Assembly (NCBI GenBank): GCA_022780765.1
Contig: JALEUS010000094.1
Span: 1 to 39,693, forward strand
From: Bacilli bacterium
GTDB lineage: Bacteria; Bacillota_I; Bacilli_A; RFN20; CAG-288
Direction: 5' to 3'
DNA length: 39,693 bases
A model generated the notes under the pieces. That model was not told the origin of the DNA. It made no database searches and saw only the letters and a list, made by a program, of their open reading frames with translations. Below are positions 3 through 37,509 of the stretch, in pieces; the first letter of the stretch is position 1, and each line of letters begins with the position of its first letter. The position numbers and the translations under genes are program-made.

Positions 3-338
3 ATCCTTCAAATATATTTTTCATCAGTTTATCGAGCTCGAATAGATCCATGTAAAAAGAGAGTCGGCGTTAATGAATTTAAATTGCTTCTTGAAACTTA
101 TCATAATAAAATAGCGGGTAGCGATTATCTTTATAGTGCTATAAAACCATGTCTTAATGAATTTGACTACATCAGGAAAAACCTAAGGCGACATGGTGAA
201 GAGTATAGTCTTGATAGTCTAATTGAATACTACAAAAAGACTGACGCTTTATTTACTGAAGCAAGTGACGCTCTTATCGAAGAGATAATTGATATTAAGA
301 AAGAAGAAGATTTATTATTCCGAAGTCGCTATAGATAG
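3..338 (+). CDS. Partial (5'-truncated) hypothetical protein, C-terminal ~111 aa; contains an Rx5H motif (RKNLRRH)
   Basis: The frame of the listed 84..338 ORF is open back to position 3 (ILQIYFSSVYRARIDPCKKRVGVNEFKLLLE...), so the gene starts before the window. It ends at TAG 336-338. No family recognised. Confidence 0.6.
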   Translation: MLQIYFSSVYRARIDPCKKRVGVNEFKLLLETYHNKIAGSDYLYSAIKPCLNEFDYIRKNLRRHGEEYSLDSLIEYYKKTDALFTEASDALIEEIIDIKKEEDLLFRSRYR

Positions 339-433
339 GGGTATTCAGAACTCATAAGGGGTATTCAATTTTTCAATAAGGGTATTCAATAAAGGACTAA
401 GGGTATTCAAAAAATCACTTAGGGGTATTCAAA
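336..433 (+). repeat. Array of 5 short direct repeats, core GGGTATTCA (consensus TAAGGG(G)TATTCAA), period 20-22 nt, variable linkers
   Basis: Core GGGTATTCA at 339, 359, 380, 401 and 423 (spacings 20, 21, 21, 22). Confidence 0.9.
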
Positions 434-475
434 CTCGTATTAAGAACAGTAATTAAAGCCATATTATGAAGATTT

Positions 476-510
476 AGGCTTGATTTCAAAGATGGGTTTC
501 AAGCCTTTTT
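476..510 (+). terminator. Probable intrinsic terminator downstream of the repeat array
   Basis: Stem AGGCTTGA (476-483) / TCAAGCCT (499-506) followed by a T-run. Confidence 0.6.
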
Positions 511-573
511 GTTATCTCATTGTTATTTTTTTAATTCCTATTATAATTTCTTAAAAGATTAAGAAAATTAAAG

Positions 574-778
574 ATGAGTATAAAAAAGATAGAAACAAAT
601 TTATATTGGTAAGAAAAATCTAAGATAAGGTAAAGAATCAAATCAATGAAAGAATCTGGAATAGTAATGTCAAAGTAATTGCAGGTATTAGAAGAGGTGG
701 AAAAGCAACTCTTCTTTTCAATATTTTAAGGAGTATTTGATCTCTAGTTTTGGAAATGCTTATCGCATAATGATGTAA
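574..778 (+). pseudogene. Decayed N-terminal remnant of an AAA_14/DUF4143-type ATP-binding protein
   Basis: 624-740 translates DKVKNQINERIWNSNVKVIAGIRRGGKATLLFNI, resembling the KVITGIRRxGKSxLLF Walker-A segment of this family. It is broken by stops (610-612, 621-623) and a frameshift into KEYLISS. Confidence 0.65.
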
Positions 779-983
779 CTATATTAGATTTTAATTGATT
801 TATAAACAAGCTGTTATCGATAGAATAGGTAAAAGGAAGTGTTGTTATTAATCTTTTTCTCAAGTTTAATCTTTTTTTTACTTTTTTCAGAAGAACAATG
901 TAAAAAGAAAAAACTTTTACTCTTGTTTTTTTAATCTTTTTTTATTTCTGTTATTATAATGAATTGTAAGAGATTAAAAAAAT

Positions 984-2174
984 ATGAGATCTATAAGAGA
1001 ACTTTATATAATCGGACATGGTCCTAGTTCTTCGCACACTATGGGTGTTGCTTTTGCTTGTGAATATGTAAAGGAAAAATATTTGGATATAAAAGAGGTA
1101 AAAGTGATACTATACGGTTCACTTGCTTTGACAGGAAAAGGTCATTTAACAGATTATATAATAAAAAAAGAATTTGATAAAAAACTTAAGAGCATCGATT
1201 TTGATACTGTAAAAAAGACTTCTCATCCCAATGTTATGGAGTTTTTTGTCACAGATAATGATGGAAAAGAACATTATGAGAAAATCTGTTCTACCGGTGG
1301 AGGAAGCATAAAAATATTCAGTCAAAAGGATCAGAAACATAAGGAGATCTATCCCCATAATTCACTGAAAGATATTCTTCTATTCTGCAAGAAAGAGAGA
1401 ATATCTCTTGTTGACTATGTGAAAAGATATGAGGATAAAGATATTCTTTCTTATATGAAAGAGATTCTTTTGACAATGAAAAACGTAACCAAAACAGGTA
1501 TGAATAAAACTGGTTATCTTCCAGGCACACTGAAGGTTAAAAGAAAAGCAAGTGCCATGTATAAAAGAGCGTTAACAAACAATAGTTTGTCAGATATTAA
1601 TACATGTATTGCTATTACAAGTTTCGCTGTAGCTGAAGAAAACGCTTCAGGAGGTGTCGTTGTCACTGCTCCCACATGCGGAAGTGCAGGCGTTTTACCT
1701 GGAACGATCACTTACTGTAAGATGAACAACTTGTCTGAAGAGAGAATACTAGATGGACTTCTCGTTGCTGGACTTTTTGGAATGCTTGCTAAAACAAATG
1801 GTTCAGTCAGCGGTGCAGAGTGTGGGTGTCAAGCTGAAATAGGTGTCGCCTGTGCGATGGGAGCGGCACTGGTTGCTACTGCTTTACAGCTTCAGAATGA
1901 AAAGATAGCTCAATCGGCTGAGATAGCTTTAGAGCATTCTCTTGGTTTGACCTGCGATCCAGTGTGTGGATATGTTCAGATTCCTTGTATCGAGAGATGC
2001 GCAATCTATGCATTAAAAGCTGTTGATTCTGTTTTACTTGCTAAACTCTTACCATCATCAGATGCGAAAGTGTCTTTCGATGATATTTTAAAAACGATGT
2101 ATATGACTGGGAAGGATATCAGAAAAGAATATAAAGAGACATCGATTTCTGGTCTTGCTAAAGTCATCAAATAA
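984..2174 (+). CDS. sdaA: L-serine ammonia-lyase, Fe-S dependent, single-chain
   Basis: Motifs GPSSSHT, EENASGGVVVTAPTCGSAG, SGAECGCQAEIG, GLTCDPV.GYVQIPCIER, YKETS.SGLA. Confidence 0.93.
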   Translation: MRSIRELYIIGHGPSSSHTMGVAFACEYVKEKYLDIKEVKVILYGSLALTGKGHLTDYIIKKEFDKKLKSIDFDTVKKTSHPNVMEFFVTDNDGKEHYEKICSTGGGSIKIFSQKDQKHKEIYPHNSLKDILLFCKKERISLVDYVKRYEDKDILSYMKEILLTMKNVTKTGMNKTGYLPGTLKVKRKASAMYKRALTNNSLSDINTCIAITSFAVAEENASGGVVVTAPTCGSAGVLPGTITYCKMNNLSEERILDGLLVAGLFGMLAKTNGSVSGAECGCQAEIGVACAMGAALVATALQLQNEKIAQSAEIALEHSLGLTCDPVCGYVQIPCIERCAIYALKAVDSVLLAKLLPSSDAKVSFDDILKTMYMTGKDIRKEYKETSISGLAKVIK

Positions 2175-17239: not shown

Positions 17240-18109
17240 ATGAATAAATTATCTGCTAACATCGATTTTTTAAACAAAACTAGAGTAAAAGTAGATGAAA
17301 AACTGTTTTCTGAGACAATAACACACACTCTGTCTTATCTTAAGAAAGAAGGGCAATATGTTTTATCTGTCACAATTGTAAATTCAAAAGAGATGCAGAA
17401 ACTAAACAGAGAATACAAAGGTAAGGATGCTCCTACCGATGTGCTTACTTTTCCCTATTCTTCTGAGAAACAAGAAGATGAGCCATTTATCGATTTAGGT
17501 TCTGTGATACTCTGTCATGACATCTGCAAAAAGGAAGCTGAGAAGAGAAATGAAAACATCTTAAAGACATATGCTCTTCTTTTAATACATGGTATCTTAC
17601 ACATATTTGGGTATGATCACCACAGGAGCAAGAGCGAAGAGAAAGAGATGTTCTCCTTGCAAGAGAAAATTTTAGATACTCTCTGCTACGATTTTATAAC
17701 AGATATGAAACTCATGAAAAAATGTTTAAAAGAAGCTCAAAGCAGGGCATATACACCTTATTCTCATTTCAATGTAGGTGCTGTTGTTGTCACTAAGGAT
17801 GGAAAGTATCATCTAGGTTGCAACATTGAAAATTCAGCATACTCTGTTGCTTGTTGCGCTGAGAGAGTAGCTCTATTTAAGGTGATATCTCAAGGGTATA
17901 AAAAAGAAGACATAGTATCTTTAGGATGTATCACTTCATCTTCAAATATCGGTACTCCATGCGGTGTATGTCGTCAGGCTATGGCAGAACTTATGAATCT
18001 CAAATGTCCAGTTTACATCTTCAATAATGACATGGACAAAAAGCTTTTTACAACAGTTGAAGGACTTCTTCCCTACTCGTTTTCTTCAGAGGATCTCTTT
18101 GCAAAATGA
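17240..18109 (+). CDS. ybeY-cdd: Fusion: rRNA maturation endoribonuclease YbeY + cytidine deaminase Cdd
   Basis: N-half LNREYKGKDAPTDVLTF and HGILHIFGYDH; C-half AYTPYSHFNVGA, NIENSAY..CCAER, PCGVCRQ; one continuous ORF. Confidence 0.9.
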   Translation: MNKLSANIDFLNKTRVKVDEKLFSETITHTLSYLKKEGQYVLSVTIVNSKEMQKLNREYKGKDAPTDVLTFPYSSEKQEDEPFIDLGSVILCHDICKKEAEKRNENILKTYALLLIHGILHIFGYDHHRSKSEEKEMFSLQEKILDTLCYDFITDMKLMKKCLKEAQSRAYTPYSHFNVGAVVVTKDGKYHLGCNIENSAYSVACCAERVALFKVISQGYKKEDIVSLGCITSSSNIGTPCGVCRQAMAELMNLKCPVYIFNNDMDKKLFTTVEGLLPYSFSSEDLFAK

Positions 18110-18981
18110 GATGTGGTACTGTATCTGTTTTTGGTAGAGCAAATGCTGGTAAATCTACCATAATTAATAAAGCTTTAGGATTTAAGCTTTTGCCCGTTTC
18201 TGAAAAACCACAGACTACAAGAGATAATGTGAGAGCGATTTTGACCGATGAAGAGAATCAGATAATCTTTGTCGATACTCCTGGAATCTTTAAACCCCAT
18301 GGAAAGCTAGGCTCTATTTTATTAAGAGATGCTTATAACTCAATGGAAGGAATCGATATGATTCTTTATGTTGTCGATGCTTCTATTAAAGTGGATGAAG
18401 AATTACCAAAAAAGATTGCTCTTTTAGATGTCCCTGTCATCGTCTGTTTTAACAAGATAGATTTAGTGAGTCTTCCCATGGGTCAGAAGCGTTTGCTTGA
18501 GTATAAAAGTATGCTTCCAAAAGCAGAGTTTGTCGAGATGTCTTGCAAGGATGATTTTGGTATAGAGGACATGCTTGAAAAAATTAAATCACATCTTCCT
18601 GAAAGGGAATTTGAATTTTCTCCTGATTACGTTTCAGATAGGCCAAAAGAGTACATCATCGCAGAGATAATCAGAGAAAAATGCATGCGCTTATTGGATG
18701 CTGAGGTTCCTCATTCTATCTATATAGACATCAAAGAAGTCAAAGAGGATGAGATAATGGAAGTTTATGCTGACATCATCGTTGAAAAAGAATCTGAAAG
18801 AGGAATAGTCATTGGAAAAAACGGCAGCATGATAAGAAAGATAAGAACATATGCTCAGCAGAGCATAAAAGGATATTTTGGTCTTCCTTGTCATATTGAT
18901 CTTCTTGTCAAATGTATACCCAATTGGAGAAATGATGAAAAGTATTTGAAAAAGTTTGGCTTTGAGGATTCTATTAAATGA
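18106..18981 (+). CDS. era: GTPase Era
   Basis: GRANAGKST, KPQTTR, DTPG, NKID, EVPHS, KH domain VIGKNG. Confidence 0.96.
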   Translation: MRCGTVSVFGRANAGKSTIINKALGFKLLPVSEKPQTTRDNVRAILTDEENQIIFVDTPGIFKPHGKLGSILLRDAYNSMEGIDMILYVVDASIKVDEELPKKIALLDVPVIVCFNKIDLVSLPMGQKRLLEYKSMLPKAEFVEMSCKDDFGIEDMLEKIKSHLPEREFEFSPDYVSDRPKEYIIAEIIREKCMRLLDAEVPHSIYIDIKEVKEDEIMEVYADIIVEKESERGIVIGKNGSMIRKIRTYAQQSIKGYFGLPCHIDLLVKCIPNWRNDEKYLKKFGFEDSIK

Positions 18982-19709
18982 GAAAGATTTCAAAAGGTAT
19001 AGTAATCAATGTATCAAAATATTCTTCAGCTAATGCTGTAGTAACGGTTATTTCAACTGATGGAAAAATAACTTTCAACATCACTAACGTGTATAAACCA
19101 AAGAGCAATTTTAAAGAATGCTTACTGGTTGGTAATATAATTGAATTTGATTATGATGTATTAAACAGTGAGTTTTGCAAAATACTATCAGTAAAACTTA
19201 TATACGATATCTCTAAGAAGTATACATCGTATAATATAGGACTTTTTCTGATGTACTTTTCTTCTTCACTGCAGAGATATTCTCTTTATAATGAAAACAG
19301 ATCTGATGAAGAATTAGAAGTTTACTTCACTATTCTTGAGAATCTTGATGAAGAGAATTATCTTGTGTCATCTCTGCTTTTTACTTCTAATCTCATAAGA
19401 TATCTAGGTCTTTTACCGGATACTGAATCATGTATTTACTGCGGTAAAACAAATAATCTTGTCTCATTTTCTTTCTCTGAAGGGGGCTTTGTTTGCAAGG
19501 ATTGTGTGAATAGAAACATGCATCCCTTTTACTCAAAAACTGAGCTACAAGTCATACGGTTTTCTTTCTTTCCTTTTTCAAAAGAGAATCTTTTTAGAAA
19601 GGTTCCTTACGAATCTCTTAAAAGAGTGCTCCTTGATATGAACACATATCTTCAAAATCAATTTCAATATTCAGTCGACAGAAATCTGCTCTCTTTATTA
19701 TCTGAATAA
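18978..19709 (+). CDS. recO: DNA repair protein RecO
   Basis: After era; OB-fold N-terminus, Zn finger CIYCG..FSFSEGGFVCKDC. Confidence 0.85.
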   Translation: MRKISKGIVINVSKYSSANAVVTVISTDGKITFNITNVYKPKSNFKECLLVGNIIEFDYDVLNSEFCKILSVKLIYDISKKYTSYNIGLFLMYFSSSLQRYSLYNENRSDEELEVYFTILENLDEENYLVSSLLFTSNLIRYLGLLPDTESCIYCGKTNNLVSFSFSEGGFVCKDCVNRNMHPFYSKTELQVIRFSFFPFSKENLFRKVPYESLKRVLLDMNTYLQNQFQYSVDRNLLSLLSE

Positions 19710-23103: not shown

Positions 23104-23258
23104 ATTTTGCACTTTTCTTTCTTTATAATTGGAAATAAATAAAAAAGTATTAAACTATTAATGTAATGCCGGTTTTTTCATGTGATTTTGTGAATGATTT
23201 TGTGACTAAAACTTTCGTTTTGTCAATGTGTTGACTGGCTAGAATTATGGAGAAATAT

Positions 23259-24941
23259 ATGCCAATTAAAAAAACTGACAAGGATAATATGAAGAGAGAG
23301 GATAAGAAAGAAAAGGTGAAAAAGAAAGCGACAAAAGATTCTTCTAAAGTAGATAAAGCTATACTGGATGACGATATAAACAATCTTGTTTTAGGTGGAA
23401 GCGATAAGGAAACAATTTCTACTAAAAGCAAAAAGCATGCTTCTTCAAAGATTGAAGGTAAGAAGATTGTTGGAGATGATTTTGTTCAAAATAAAAGCAG
23501 TAAAAAGAAGAGTAAGAGCAATAATTACTCAACTGCTGATTATGTCAACATGATTGTGTCCTTTGCAGAGAAAAACAGTAATTACTTAACTCTTGTTGAA
23601 GTAAAAGAGTATCTCTCTGAATACCTCTTGCCTGAGAAAATTGTCAACAAAGTCGTAGAAGAAGCAAAGAAAAAAGGTGTCTCCATCAAGAAATCAAAAG
23701 GAAAAGATATTGAACAATTCAATAAAAATATCACTTCTGATGATAAAGATACATCCAGTAAAAAGAAGAAAGGTGTAATCAAGATAAAAGATTTTTCTGG
23801 TACTTTACTTACTATTGATGACATCAAAGAATCCGTTTTAATCTATGCTAAAGGCAAAGGTAATTCCATAACCACGGATGAGATGATGCTTCAGCTTAAG
23901 GGTTATGAGCTCACTGATAACGAGTATCAGATGCTCATCGATTATCTCTACGATAACAAAGTGCTTTTGGATGCAAATGACACCGATGTTGTAAATGAGC
24001 TAGACGATCTTTATATAACACAAATTGATGATGCAGATGACGATCAACCAAAACTTCAGAATTTTTATAACGAAAATGATCCTATCAATTCTGCTGATGT
24101 GAAGAATTCTGATCCTATAAGACAGTATCTTCACAGCATCGGTGCTTACGATGTTTTAGAAAGCAAAGAGCAAGAGGTCGAACTTGCTAAACTTATTGAA
24201 GAAGGTGATCAGGATGCTAAAGATGAACTCATTCAGTGCAATTTGAAACTTGTTGTGGCTATTGCCAAACACTACTTGAATCGTGGAATGGACTTTTTAG
24301 ATCTCATTCAAGAAGGTAATCTTGGTTTGATTAAAGCTGTCGATAAATTTGATTATCGTAAAGGTTTTAAATTTTCCACTTACGCTACCTGGTGGATAAG
24401 ACAAGCTATCACTCGTGCTTTAGCTGATCAGGCAAGAACTATCAGAATTCCAGTCCACATGGTTGAGACCATCAACAAGATAACAAAGACTCAGAGGATG
24501 CTTGTTCAGAAACTCAACAGAGATCCTACTCCTGATGAGATATCTGACGCTATGGGTGGAACGCTCTCAGCTTCTAAGATCATTGAGATTCAGCAGATAT
24601 CTTTGGATCCTCTATCTCTTGAAAAGCCAATCGGTGAAGAAGAGGATTCTCATGTCGGAGATTTTATTGTCGACAAGGATAATGAATCGCCTTACGATTT
24701 TGCAAACAGAGCTATGGAGACAGAGAGAATAAATGAAGTTCTTCTACAGCTCACAGATAGAGAAGCCAAAGTCATCAAGCTCAGATACGGTTTACTTGAT
24801 GGTAAGACACACACTTTAGAAGAGGTCGGTCAGCTATTTGATGTGACAAGAGAAAGAATAAGACAGATTGAAGCTAAAGCTTTAAAGAAGCTCAGACATC
24901 CTTCCAGAGCAAAATTATTGAAAGATTTTAGAAAAGATTAG
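23259..24941 (+). CDS. rpoD: Primary sigma factor SigA/RpoD with long Lys-rich N-terminal extension
   Basis: [78 protein letters not shown]. Start is 23259 (SD GGAG) or 23247. Confidence 0.95.
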
Positions 24942-24943
24942 TT

Positions 24944-26089
24944 ATGAAAGAAGAGAAACAGATAAACATGGAAAAGGAAGAGTTATATTCTCTTGACAGT
25001 GAACTCTACTTATTATTGAAAAATGGTCTTTCGTCTAAAGGGAACTCTTTTGCTTTGATCAATAAAGATAATTTCAAAAACTTTCTTCCTCAGTTAAATT
25101 ACCTTTATAAAGAAGAGGGAGAAGTGATTTCTTTAGATAAATTCTTCAAACTGTTTAATGATTATCGTTTCGATGAAGATTCACTTGAACTTTTAAAGAA
25201 TAATCTGATTGAAAACAAAATCGAGCTCTGTGAAAGTGAAGAGGATATAAAAACTGAGATTGAAAAAGGAAACATATACACAAAAGATACCGATGCTTTG
25301 ACGATGTATCTAAGGGATATCTCTGCTTATCCGGTTTTAACTTACCAAGAGCAATCTGAATTAGCGAAAAAAACTAAAGAAGGTGATCTGAATGCGAGGG
25401 ATAAACTGATCAAGTCTAATCTGCGACTTGTCGTCTCTTTAGCTAAAAAATATGTTGGATGCGGAATCGATTATCTTGAACTTATTCAAGAAGGTAATGT
25501 CGGTCTGCTTAAGGCTGTCGATAAGTTTGATTACAGCAAAGGTTTCAGATTCTCAACCTATGCTACATTTTGGATAAGACAGGCTATTATCTCTGCTATC
25601 AATGAGAAGTACAGGCTCATCAAATTGCCTCATGAGGTGTTAGATAAGATTTCAAAGATAGTGAAAGCTGAAAATGAACTTAAGATAACTCTTGGCAGAG
25701 AGCCTACTTCTGAAGAGATATCGAAAAAACTCAACAATATCGTCTCACCTGAGAGAGTTGAAGAACTAAAGATAGTGAACATGAAACCGGTATCTTTGGA
25801 CGCTTCGATAAATGAAGATGTGAGTTTTCTTGACCTCTTATTTGATAAAGATGCAAACAATTCACCCGATGCTTTTGTTGAAAACAATATCATGATGGAG
25901 AGAGTAATGAATCACATCAGCGCTCTTTCTGACCGTGACAAAATTCTGATTGAGATGAGATTTGGTCTTTTGGATGGAAAGAGATACTCTCTTGAAGAGA
26001 TATCAAAGAAACTAGGAATATCTACTGAAAGAGTTCGCCAGATAGAGATGAAATTTAAAGAATCGATAATACAAGAGTGCTCAAAGTGA
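24944..26089 (+). CDS. Second RpoD-like sigma70 factor (tandem paralog)
   Basis: [70 protein letters not shown]. Confidence 0.92.
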
Positions 26090-37272: not shown

Positions 37273-37380
37273 TTAATTTTTTAAACAACCAATTGGTATA
37301 ACAAAAACATCGTCTTCTCTTTTATATCCATATTGATTACCTGTTATATTTTTCAATATCACTTTACAAATTTGCTGCAT
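37273..37380 (-). pseudogene. C-terminal remnant of a DUF4143/AAA_14-type protein
   Basis: The minus strand reads ...ITGNQYGYKREDDVFVIPIGCLKN*, resembling the YxRxDGVxVxPIGCLK C-terminus of this family. Confidence 0.6.
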
Positions 37381-37509
37381 TTAATTTTACAAATTTGCGA
37401 TTTTTTATTTTACATATTTGTCATATTTAATCTTATATATTTGCGTCAGTCAATTACTTAATAGGCTAAAACAAAAATCCTTAACGGACTTGGTTCTTTT
37501 ATCAAACTC

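Follow-up and report, generated by a model that had tools for sequence, protein, structure and literature searches.

Organization of the locus

The window analysed here, a stretch of DNA of 39,693 bases, opens inside the gene for a 132-residue protein (ORF132); it lacks the first 21 codons and holds the C-terminal 111 residues. The gene is followed by five direct repeat units, a conserved tail and a terminator, and the next gene after the terminator encodes L-serine dehydratase. The features are as follows.

3 to 338, + strand: 3' part of ORF132, 111 codons and TAG (ORF list)
336 to 348, + strand: unit 1, TAGGGGTATTCAG, includes the ORF stop codon; PWM score 22.3 bits
356 to 368, + strand: unit 2, AAGGGGTATTCAA; PWM score 18.7 bits
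377 to 389, + strand: unit 3, TAAGGGTATTCAA; PWM score 21.3 bits
398 to 410, + strand: unit 4, TAAGGGTATTCAA; PWM score 23.0 bits
420 to 432, + strand: unit 5, TAGGGGTATTCAA; PWM score 24.5 bits
433 to 462, + strand: conserved tail of ~30 bp, ACTCGTATTAAGAACAGTAATTAAAGCCAT (alignments A2 and A4, BLAST)
463 to 514, + strand: short spacer ATTATGAAGATTT and intrinsic terminator, with stem 476-506 and T-run 506-510

On the + strand, exact matches to GGGTATTCA lie at 339, 359, 380, 401 and 423; these positions and the four linkers agree letter for letter with the first-pass annotation of this DNA, and the overlap it described between the first unit and the TAG stop (336-338) is likewise present. 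There is no other copy of GGGTATTCA on either strand of the window; shuffled sequence contains 0.06 copies on average, and none of 100 shuffles reaches five. Tandem Repeats Finder places the array at 336-433 with a period of 21 and 4.7 copies. The spacing from unit to unit is 20/21/21/22 bp, such that the phasing by two helical turns proposed earlier is conserved along the array.

Comparison of ten units, from the window and from one related sequence (L003, described below), shows that conservation extends beyond 9 nt, to a core that reads A(A/G)GGGTATTCAA(A), columns 0-7 of this core table being invariant by construction of the anchor, and that the linkers between these cores hold little information. 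In the window array the core measures 12-13 nt and the linkers 8-9 nt, and no cas family is found in the window; the earlier remark that the array is too short for CRISPR, in which repeats of about 23-47 nt alternate with unique spacers of similar length, is therefore upheld. A minus-strand cluster of units was found neither in the window (39 kb rightward of the array) nor at any of the other loci.

The array corresponds to no element in the collections searched. Rfam returned nothing at the gathering threshold for the window and the other loci, and only chance-level matches at E values up to 10; a search for tRNA and tmRNA genes gave none; and the read-through translation of the array, run against a protein database, returned only the query itself. 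Full-text literature search with the core motif gave, among the matches listed, only unrelated primer-type occurrences, and word searches on repeat modules of this kind or on ABC-F cassettes listed nothing pertinent. An exact reverse complement between the ORF (221-230) and the array (361-370), noticed earlier as perhaps fortuitous, does exist, but a match of at least 10 nt to the array arises in 138 of 2000 codon-shuffled ORFs, which is chance level, and pairing of ORF and array was rejected. Chance also fits the fact that this ORF segment is unchanged in a second sequence, L001, where the array core is different.

The window has a single copy of the tail, and similarity between the window and both L003 copies ends directly after the terminal GCCAT; a diverged version of the tail lies 3' of both arrays of a third sequence, L002 (alignment A4). 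A conserved promoter in the tail was considered and rejected on the basis of promoter scans and a reading of alignment A4, and tblastx of window positions 430-1000 revealed no pseudogene remnants of the genes at the other loci. The terminator annotated at 476-510 is a genuine hairpin (476-483 pairs with 499-506, an inner stem adds 4 bp, and TTTTTGTT comes next; fold energy -12.1 kcal/mol, z = -3.0), which a simple terminator scan missed because the loop limit of that scan is 8 nt. The region 463 to 514 is homologous to L002 19213-19258, within which a terminator is called at 19222-19248. Alignment A4 matches the spacer and the 5' arm of the terminator, and the stems, when read in helix register, are AGGCTTGA/TCAAGCCT in the window versus AGGTTTGA/TCAAACCT in L002, with one pair changed on both sides; the terminators of the window and of the second L002 array (L002B) are thus homologous, with one compensatory stem change.

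The protein encoded upstream

ORF132 belongs to a family of 32 proteins, for which alignment A1 has 23 sequences; across residues 22-132 it shares 93% identity with a full-length relative, P0001. With a pI of 5.3, ORF132 is acidic. The fragment in the window matches no family in Pfam, NCBIfam or PADLOC, and only weakly matches PHROGs entries of unknown function; P0001, for which Pfam was the sole library scanned, gave no match. The PDB profile search returned nothing better than E = 0.43, and the ESM Atlas gave a top score of at most 0.77 with nothing among named clusters. A search limited to longer proteins gave no homologues. One of nine exhaustive HMMER matches, the 805-residue repeat protein P0009, was set aside as spurious, since the resemblance consists only of a short GEEYSL-type stretch that occurs 8 times. 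Both the protein family and the repeat family are accordingly undescribed in every library searched.

Alignment A1 shows that residues 1-115 are nearly identical regardless of the type of array that follows, whereas the last ~15 codons vary together with array type. Elsewhere, 3' remnants of ORF132 are joined to unrelated sequence at no fewer than 6 different upstream junction points, and other copies are frameshifted. Members of the family are found mostly on contigs of 0.5-4 kb, and P0022 lies on a contig of 13.9 kb.

Recurrence of the array and its genomic setting

Seven copies of the array were found in four sequences (the window, L001, L002 and L003), all of them MAG-derived, and these, together with protein-only read-through translations, make up the whole comparison. 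The carrier MAGs are assigned to three taxa, Intestinibacter, Clostridium and Erysipelotrichaceae. One copy lies in the 39.7-kb window; L002 (19.5 kb) has two, as does L003 (4.3 kb). BOX/REP-like repeats are scattered in large numbers through the ordinary intergenic DNA of a genome.

An array follows ORF132 or an ORF132 remnant in the window, in L001 (set 1) and in the first L003 copy (L003a), and it directly follows the ORF132 homologue in the read-through translations P0006 and P0002. That homologues of the gene are followed by arrays, a point the first-pass annotation proposed to test, holds for P0006, P0002 and L001, but not for the 53%-identical homologue in L002, which has no array after it. 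In L001 the ORF is 93% identical to that of the window and the first unit again overlaps the stop codon, but the core is a different one, GGTGCTAA(+TTACACGATT); the two sequences diverge progressively from about window position 264 and are unalignable at the array, with the half-site TAAGGGT common to both array types. The L001 units are spaced by 31-32 bp, apart from one 10-bp step between the first two, overlapping units, and they form two sets that flank a stretch of ~190 bp holding a terminator, with the two units of set 2 beyond it.

The remaining copies stand beside unrelated genes. L002B lies 3' of an ABC-F gene (spacing 21/20), and the second L003 copy, L003b, lies 3' of a NUDIX gene and a 77-nt block (spacing 20/21/22), the progression 20, 21, (21), 22 being common to the window and L003b arrays. 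L002A (spacing 20) adjoins a divergent IS3-family element, 5' of a promoter and leader region, and has no terminator. Two ABC-F genes that are 45-46% identical, one in L002 and one in L003, are each flanked by direct copies of the array. For the window, L003a and L003b, similarity starts at the first unit and ends after GCCAT, with unrelated sequence on either side. Every copy has the orientation of its neighbouring genes, and in 5 of the 7 a co-oriented intrinsic terminator lies within ~45 nt 3' of the array. The first-pass annotation had named identical arrays beside unrelated genes as an outcome that would count against its reading; the array homologues at L003 2823-2900 and L002 19130-19190 go part of the way toward that outcome.

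The number of units ranges from 1 to 5 between copies, and the conserved part of the unit differs by lineage (GGGTATTCAA in the window, AAAAACGAAAGG in L002A), such that homogenisation within arrays may contribute to the apparent core.

The ORF132 homologue of L002 has tail and holin genes on one side and two large serine recombinases and an IS on the other, and these recombinases are the only ones near the arrays in the DNA read; serine recombinases are not known to require accessory repeats of this kind. Beside the window array, in the DNA from position 1 rightward, there is no gene for a candidate binding protein, an integrase or a transposase. A remnant at L002 19262-19440 that by eye resembled the C-terminus of a winged-helix protein of L001 was not confirmed by tblastn.

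A phased docking module as the preferred reading

Judged from its sequence, the element is a head-to-tail run of 1-5 units, which are 20-21 bp long and built around an asymmetric core of 12-13 bp; a tail of ~30 bp comes next, and usually a terminator. It is found at the 3' limit of cargo genes, in mobile DNA of prophage or island type from gut Bacillota. The arrays are most likely docking sites for a DNA-binding protein rather than a partner of the upstream gene. A more specific version, in which head-to-tail double-stranded binding sites on one helix face mark junctions between cargo modules in the manner of a recombination or attachment site, is favored tentatively, at somewhat less than an even chance. 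We infer that the element would act as double-stranded DNA, each core binding one monomer of a putative sequence-specific protein. Two-turn spacing would align every monomer along a single helix face; the monomers would therefore bind cooperatively and bend or coat ~100 bp, and the protein-array complex together with the tail could then serve as a recombination or attachment-type site at which gene modules are joined or exchanged. The array would not be a site for the 132-residue protein itself.

This reading is consistent with unit spacings that approximate two or three turns of B-DNA in the window, L001, L002 and L003, with the retention of cores and freedom of linkers across the ten units of the window and L003, and with the position of L002A and two L001 units outside any 3'UTR. 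It also draws on the sharp module boundaries, the recurrence beside unrelated genes (ABC-F genes among them), the mobile-DNA surroundings and the lack of an RNA fold in the window array. Points against it are the absence of a candidate binding protein, integrase or transposase beside the window array (position 1 rightward), the shared orientation of arrays and neighbouring genes, the serine type of the L002 recombinases, the lack of an inverted partner array in the window and the loci, and the lineage differences in the conserved part of the unit. The earlier proposal of phased protein-binding sites at a mobile-element boundary remains the best one, although the Rep or ParB gene it invoked is absent from the DNA read.

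Among known systems, the arm-type integrase sites and recombination-directionality-factor binding arrays of attP and attR in tyrosine-recombinase phages and ICEs offer a close parallel: they too are several direct repeats of ~10-13 nt near an element or module boundary in mobile DNA, with variants that have different cores. Passages of PMC11963761 describe an ICE attP of 283 bp with five P/arm-type integrase motifs of ~10 nt, all required; in the window the five cores end 30 bp before the similarity to L003 stops. Unlike these sites, the present copies return at intervals of 2-3 kb around cargo genes and include a terminator, and no tyrosine integrase or core site was identified near the arrays in the DNA read, where the recombinases are of serine type only (L002). 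A second parallel is with the ends of Tn7 and Mu. At Tn7 ends, according to PMC9308760, transposase sites of 22 bp form arrays that adjoin a terminal sequence of 8 bp. The element end is defined there by sites of ~22 bp placed head to tail, and here also homology stops sharply, shortly past the last site. The present module differs in that a 30-bp tail devoid of the core motif separates the last unit from the boundary, and in that neither an inverted array nor a DDE transposase of Tn7/Mu type is found in the window or at the other loci.

Improbable, though related to the docking module, is the idea that array plus tail serve as the sites of recombination for a gene-capture system of cassette type in Bacillota mobile DNA. 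Each cargo gene (ORF132, ABC-F, NUDIX) would carry its own phased-repeat site at its 3' end, and crossover just after the GCCAT tail would insert or excise the cassette. The system would be analogous in function to integron cassettes or tandem SCC elements, which likewise have a recombination-site-like module after each cargo gene, direct copies flanking the cassette, and insertion that falls on, or overlaps, a conserved gene's 3' end. Integron attC sites are imperfect palindromes, whereas the site here would be the direct-repeat array, and any partner of IntI or Ccr type would be hypothetical. As a variant, the cargo genes may be under one RNA-binding regulator acting on a 3'UTR repeat RNA.

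Alternative explanations

The strongest rival, though on balance unlikely, is that the element works as RNA: the array would be part of a 3'UTR or read-through RNA ending at its own terminator, in which the 4-5 single-stranded cores act either on an RNA-binding protein, by binding or titrating it, or on the stability of mRNAs from mobile-element cargo genes. Gene stop, array, tail and terminator lie on one strand in 5 of 7 copies, and the first unit covers the stop codon in the window and L001. This co-orientation and the homology of the window and L002B terminators, with their compensatory stem pair, mean that a transcribed 3'-end element fits those observations at least as well as the docking module does. 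A promoter-like site at 289-318 (10 of 12 matches) could start an RNA of ~190 nt, but it is not conserved in L001. Folding is similarly divided, since L003b with its tail folds beyond shuffles (z = -3.3) but this fold is not kept in the window, where the fold energy of the array is near that of shuffles (z = -0.2 and -1.3). Periods of 20-22 and 31-32 nt fit DNA helical repeats, for which an RNA function gives no reason. L002A, beside its divergent IS and 5' of a promoter and leader without a terminator, and the two L001 units past a terminator are misplaced for a 3'UTR, and no Rfam family matches.

An origin or partition site of an integrated plasmid- or phage-like replicon, bound by a protein of Rep or ParR/ParB type, is a distinctly less probable explanation. 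Its appeal is one of format. According to PMC4980987, iterons come as 2-7 copies of 17-22 bp, and their cooperativity is lost on displacement by half a turn; the five direct repeats of the window, with a period of ~21 bp (20/21/21/22) and helical phasing, have the classical iteron arrangement described there. The asymmetric core suits monomer binding, the related but different cores of the window and L001 resemble incompatibility variants, and the two L001 unit sets flank a ~190-bp stretch with a terminator. Iteron origins also have an adjacent AT-rich unwinding element with repeated 13-mers, and often DnaA boxes. At the window array, however, there is only the 30-bp tail and then a GC-rich terminator, with no unwinding element and no repeated 13-mers reported; no DnaA box with up to 1 mismatch lies within 1 kb, the nearest being at 1430. 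No Rep, helicase-loader, ParA/ParM or ParB family is represented among the 32 window ORFs and the scanned ORFs of the other loci, nor do ParA/ParM or centromere-binding genes adjoin the arrays in the DNA read (position 1 rightward, and the loci). Searches of 72,556 plasmid and 50,697 phage records (blastn with the array region and the L001 array; tblastn with both versions of ORF132) gave nothing for the protein and only short chance matches for the DNA, and copies that flank cargo genes within 2-3 kb (L002, L003) are atypical of origins.

There is little to recommend a neutral minisatellite, that is, a functionless tandem repeat made by slippage and carried in variable intergenic DNA, although the unit count does vary from 1 to 5 and lineages do keep different parts of the unit, as homogenisation within arrays predicts. 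Recent slippage would not give identical cores with four almost unrelated linkers, as in the window, and the module persists in MAGs of three taxa and across ABC-F genes only 45% identical, with the same spacing series in two arrays (window and L003b).

That the array is specific to the 132-residue protein, as its own operator or centromere or as the RNA partner of a type III toxin-antitoxin-like system, is scarcely credible: the array does abut the ORF in the window, L001, P0006 and P0002, the half-site TAAGGGT is shared and the last ~15 codons change with array type, but a 93%-identical ORF precedes another core, array homologues come after ABC-F and NUDIX genes that have no intact ORF132 as neighbour, the L002 homologue has no adjacent array, residues 1-115 stay nearly identical whatever the array type, and the protein is acidic with no match to ToxN/AbiQ-type, DNA-binding or defence families. 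In type III systems the repeats are ~34-45 nt long and lie upstream of the toxin gene, with a terminator between. The array shares with ToxI-like repeat RNAs its short tandem repeats next to a small gene and a terminator, but here the repeats follow the gene, the period is 21 nt, and there is neither a conserved RNA fold nor, in the window, an endoribonuclease of ToxN/AbiQ/CptN/TenpN type or a PADLOC match; the toxin-antitoxin analogy drawn in the first-pass annotation is therefore abandoned, as is its link to the upstream protein.

Implications

If they serve in recombination or attachment, the modules would mark the shuffling of cargo between mobile elements of abundant gut Bacillota, cargo that would include a ribosomal-protection-like ABC-F gene, and the phased cores with the GCCAT tail would provide a simple sequence handle for module junctions in fragmented metagenome assemblies, which tend to break at just these points. 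Should the element act as RNA instead, it would represent a new type among 3'UTR repeats.

The repeat array and its surroundings

The core GGGTATTCA occurs at 339, 359, 380, 401 and 423, always on the + strand, and these are its sole copies in the 39,693-base window; the mean expectation from shuffles is 0.06 copies, and five or more were found in 0 of 100. The five-unit array of the first-pass annotation is thus borne out, together with its differing linkers, whose sequences are as recorded there; the further core clusters for which it proposed a search are absent from the rest of the window. Tandem Repeats Finder (TRF) gives period 21 and 4.7 copies at 336-433, with unit starts 20, 21, 21 and 22 bp apart. 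As had also been proposed, the upstream gene (ORF132, a 132-aa family protein) has its TAG stop within unit 1, and the array is followed at 476-506 by a hairpin with a T-run (-12.1 kcal/mol, z = -3.0), a credible intrinsic terminator. The 10-nt reverse complement at 221-230 is confirmed and, as had been suspected, is at chance level, being equalled by 138 of 2000 codon-shuffled ORFs. Over the ten units of the window and of the related locus L003, the conserved unit extends beyond 9 nt to A(A/G)GGGTATTCAA(A); the other 8-9 positions hold almost no information, and the eight anchor columns of the unit profile are invariant by construction.

The window beyond the array is ordinary chromosome, with genes for L-serine dehydratase, [FeFe] hydrogenase, nrdD/nrdG, pyruvate kinase, plsY, mraZ, rsmH, threonyl-tRNA synthetase, era, recO, primase, relA/spoT and efp, two sigma-70 genes and one GyrB/ParE-type gene; no Rfam family or tRNA was found in the window. 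The array thus lies at the window's left edge, with a foreign-looking small gene on one side and housekeeping DNA on the other. The sigma-70 family pair (23247-26089) is adjacent, of 564 and 381 aa, each containing regions 1.2, 2, 3 and 4. Phased direct repeats form another array at 37363-37445, in the intergenic region between the efp-side genes and plsY: TTTACAAATTTGC with two degenerate versions of it at a period of 23 (TRF score 82). The rest of the window shows no enrichment of this motif.

The upstream gene family

The window's 111 codons correspond to residues 22-132 of ORF132, to which the database relative P0001 is 93% identical. HMMER, run exhaustively against 1.84 billion representatives, gave 9 matches, one of which (P0009) was rejected as a spurious repeat protein. 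A word-indexed search gave 32 family proteins, one cluster having 447 member sequences; nearly all 32 lie on contigs of 0.5-4 kb. No relative was found in Pfam, NCBIfam, PADLOC, PDB or Atlas, PHROG matches were weak and of function unassigned in PHROGs, and tblastn gave zero matches in 50,697 phage and 72,556 plasmid records. The window and L001 ORFs differ by 9 synonymous and 5 non-synonymous codons, consistent with ORF132 behaving as a real gene.

Decay is evident in several members. P0005 carries a frameshift, and 3' remnants (P0004, P0006/L003a, P0007/P0036, P0024, P0031, P0037) join unrelated upstream sequence, with six distinct junctions: that of P0024 lies near residue 11, the other five in the range of residues 53 to 99. 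In P0037 the sequence upstream of the remnant is the end of a protein that Pfam labels as GyrB/ParE-type. The upstream part of P0036 would, judging from its translation, represent two tRNA T-arms, after which come two exact 7-residue (21-nt) KGIGKKT repeats. The C-terminal residues of P0019 resemble what we take to be translated sequencing adapter, and the entry probably derives from an untrimmed read assembly.

Arrays behind relatives of the gene

Of 23 aligned family sequences, 14 have the RYR/RYK ending seen in the window, 3 have QGC there, and the other 6 are truncated or have diverged. Translation of P0006 past its stop reads QGYS..RGIQ..KGIQ..QGIQ..QGYS, which on back-translation would represent five cores in two frames; that of P0002 would likewise hold three cores in three frames. 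A scan of genome contigs found three ORF132 loci, all in MAGs.

ORF132 loci and their array copies
L001, Intestinibacter sp.: ORF followed by an array with another core
L002, Erysipelotrichaceae bacterium: homolog 53% identical
L003, uncultured Clostridium sp.: truncated ORF remnant, one surviving unit and tail (copy L003a)
L003b, 2823-2900: four units, spacing 20, 21, 22; preceded by a NUDIX gene and then a 77-nt block, followed by a Fic gene
L002A, 17286-17379: period 20, 4.8 copies; adjoins an IS3-family element, 5' of an ABC-F gene leader
L002B, 19130-19181: period 20, 2.5 copies; begins 70 nt past the ABC-F stop

The suggestion that homologs be examined for downstream arrays thus has a divided outcome: arrays follow the close relatives (P0006, P0002, L001), but none lies behind the more distant L002 homolog. 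The L001 ORF has 93% DNA identity up to about window position 264; divergence grows from there until no alignment is possible at the array, where the core is GGTGCTAA, paired with TTACACGATT. Its units are spaced 31-32 bp, the first two overlapping units being 10 bp apart, and four (set 1) precede a terminator at 355-380 with two (set 2) beyond it. TAAGGGT is common to the window-type and L001-type cores.

At L002 10440-10625, directly after the homolog, stands a promoter-like TTGACT-17-TATATAAT, with a downstream segment of ~170 nt ending in a hairpin and T-run. The segment matches no Rfam family and does not fold significantly (z = -0.15); a stretch 82% identical to its final 77 nt occupies L003 2737-2813, immediately 5' of L003b. 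A weak preQ1-II-like match at L002 10663-10742 (E = 0.06; 24 bits, the gathering score being 47), preceding a small hydrophobic ORF, is probably chance.

A module beside unrelated genes in mobile DNA

The array is not tied to ORF132. Seven copies occur in four sequences, all seven co-oriented with their neighbours, and direct module copies flank ABC-F genes in both L002 (where arrays A and B were found by position-weight scan) and L003. The L002 ABC-F gene (17283-19260 region) has as its best model a ribosomal-protection-like ABC-F, at 298 bits against a cut-off of 380 (NCBIfam); the L003 homolog (233-2930 region) is 45-46% identical to it and split into two ORFs. Both genes have a short leader ORF.

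The module has sharp limits. A ~30-bp tail, ACTCGTATTAAGAACAGTAATTAAAGCCAT, is common to the window, L003a and L003b (diverged in L003b); similarity among the three ends right after its GCCAT, their flanks being unrelated, and the left limit of window-L003b similarity is the first unit. A diverged tail ending GCC(A/T) is recognisable in L002A and L002B. Window-L002B homology extends past the tail to take in a short spacer as well as the terminator, whose stems (AGGCTTGA/TCAAGCCT in the window, AGGTTTGA/TCAAACCT in L002B) have one pair altered on both sides; the terminators after L003a, L003b and L001 set 1 differ from this one. A co-oriented terminator lies within ~45 nt 3' of five of the seven copies, the exceptions being L002A and L001 set 2.

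The arrays have a mobile-DNA context. In L002, tail genes and a holin precede the ORF132 homolog, followed by two large serine recombinases, the IS3-family element and the array-flanked ABC-F; the cargo includes Fic, NUDIX, ABC-F and Schlafen/AlbA_2 genes. The L001 contig ends inside ORF132, as does the window's, provided that position 1 marks a contig end, and the L003 end is close to the remnant. Short contigs, contig ends in the ORF, decayed copies and cargo are all in keeping with a mobile element that is multi-copy or varies between strains.

Smaller repeats were also seen. Several TGTCCATT-type short repeats stand beside the IS3-family transposase genes (L002 17100-17270), probably an IS end, which would then lie ~15 bp from array A; an exact 12-bp tandem repeat, TGGCGCATTAAG x2.4, occupies L002 19299-19327. 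In L001, operator-like repeats TTGTATAC / GTATACAA (650-715) precede a Schlafen/AlbA_2, HATPase_c_4, winged-helix gene (734-2130), whose two overlapping ORFs (734-1174, 1057-2130) suggest a frameshift; at 1905-1944, within the Schlafen/AlbA_2-family gene, is an exact 12-nt tandem repeat x3.3.

Interpretation of the array

Our preferred reading, held tentatively and based on comparison of the window, the three MAG loci and protein translations, is that the array may act at the DNA level, as a recombination or attachment-type site at module junctions. The cores are asymmetric, 12-13 bp and head-to-tail, with a period of about two helical turns (three in L001). Monomer-binding arrays have this format, among them iterons (PMC4980987), integrase arm-type sites, of which an ICE attP requires five (PMC11963761), and Tn7 transposase sites (PMC9308760). 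A putative protein would bind the units, and a reaction would follow. Sharp boundaries, a switch of array type after nearly identical ORFs, and direct copies flanking two distant ABC-F genes suggest the role at module junctions. Of the phased DNA-binding array at a mobile-element end first envisaged, the phasing, boundaries and mobile context stand. The window and locus ORFs scanned include no Rep or Par gene, neither an unwinding element nor a DnaA box adjoins the window array, and a replication origin is disfavoured relative to a recombination or attachment-type site. Neither the motif nor a comparable module is described among the literature matches listed.

The main rival, which we consider rather unlikely, is that the array belongs to a transcribed 3'UTR. 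In its favour are the succession of gene, array, tail and terminator and the compensated pair in the stem of the latter. Against it, the periodicity is DNA-like, L002A and L001 set 2 lie outside a 3'UTR, a conserved promoter is absent, and no fold is conserved (window z = -0.2; that of L003b, z = -3.3, is not shared). The repeat RNA tied to the upstream protein, as in type III toxin-antitoxin systems, or any ORF-specific array, is poorly supported, since arrays also adjoin NUDIX and ABC-F genes and the IS3-family element, and the ORF is acidic (pI 5.3) with family matches wanting in Pfam, NCBIfam and PADLOC. A neutral minisatellite is unlikely, as cores are identical while linkers are unrelated and the module persists across distant hosts and genes.
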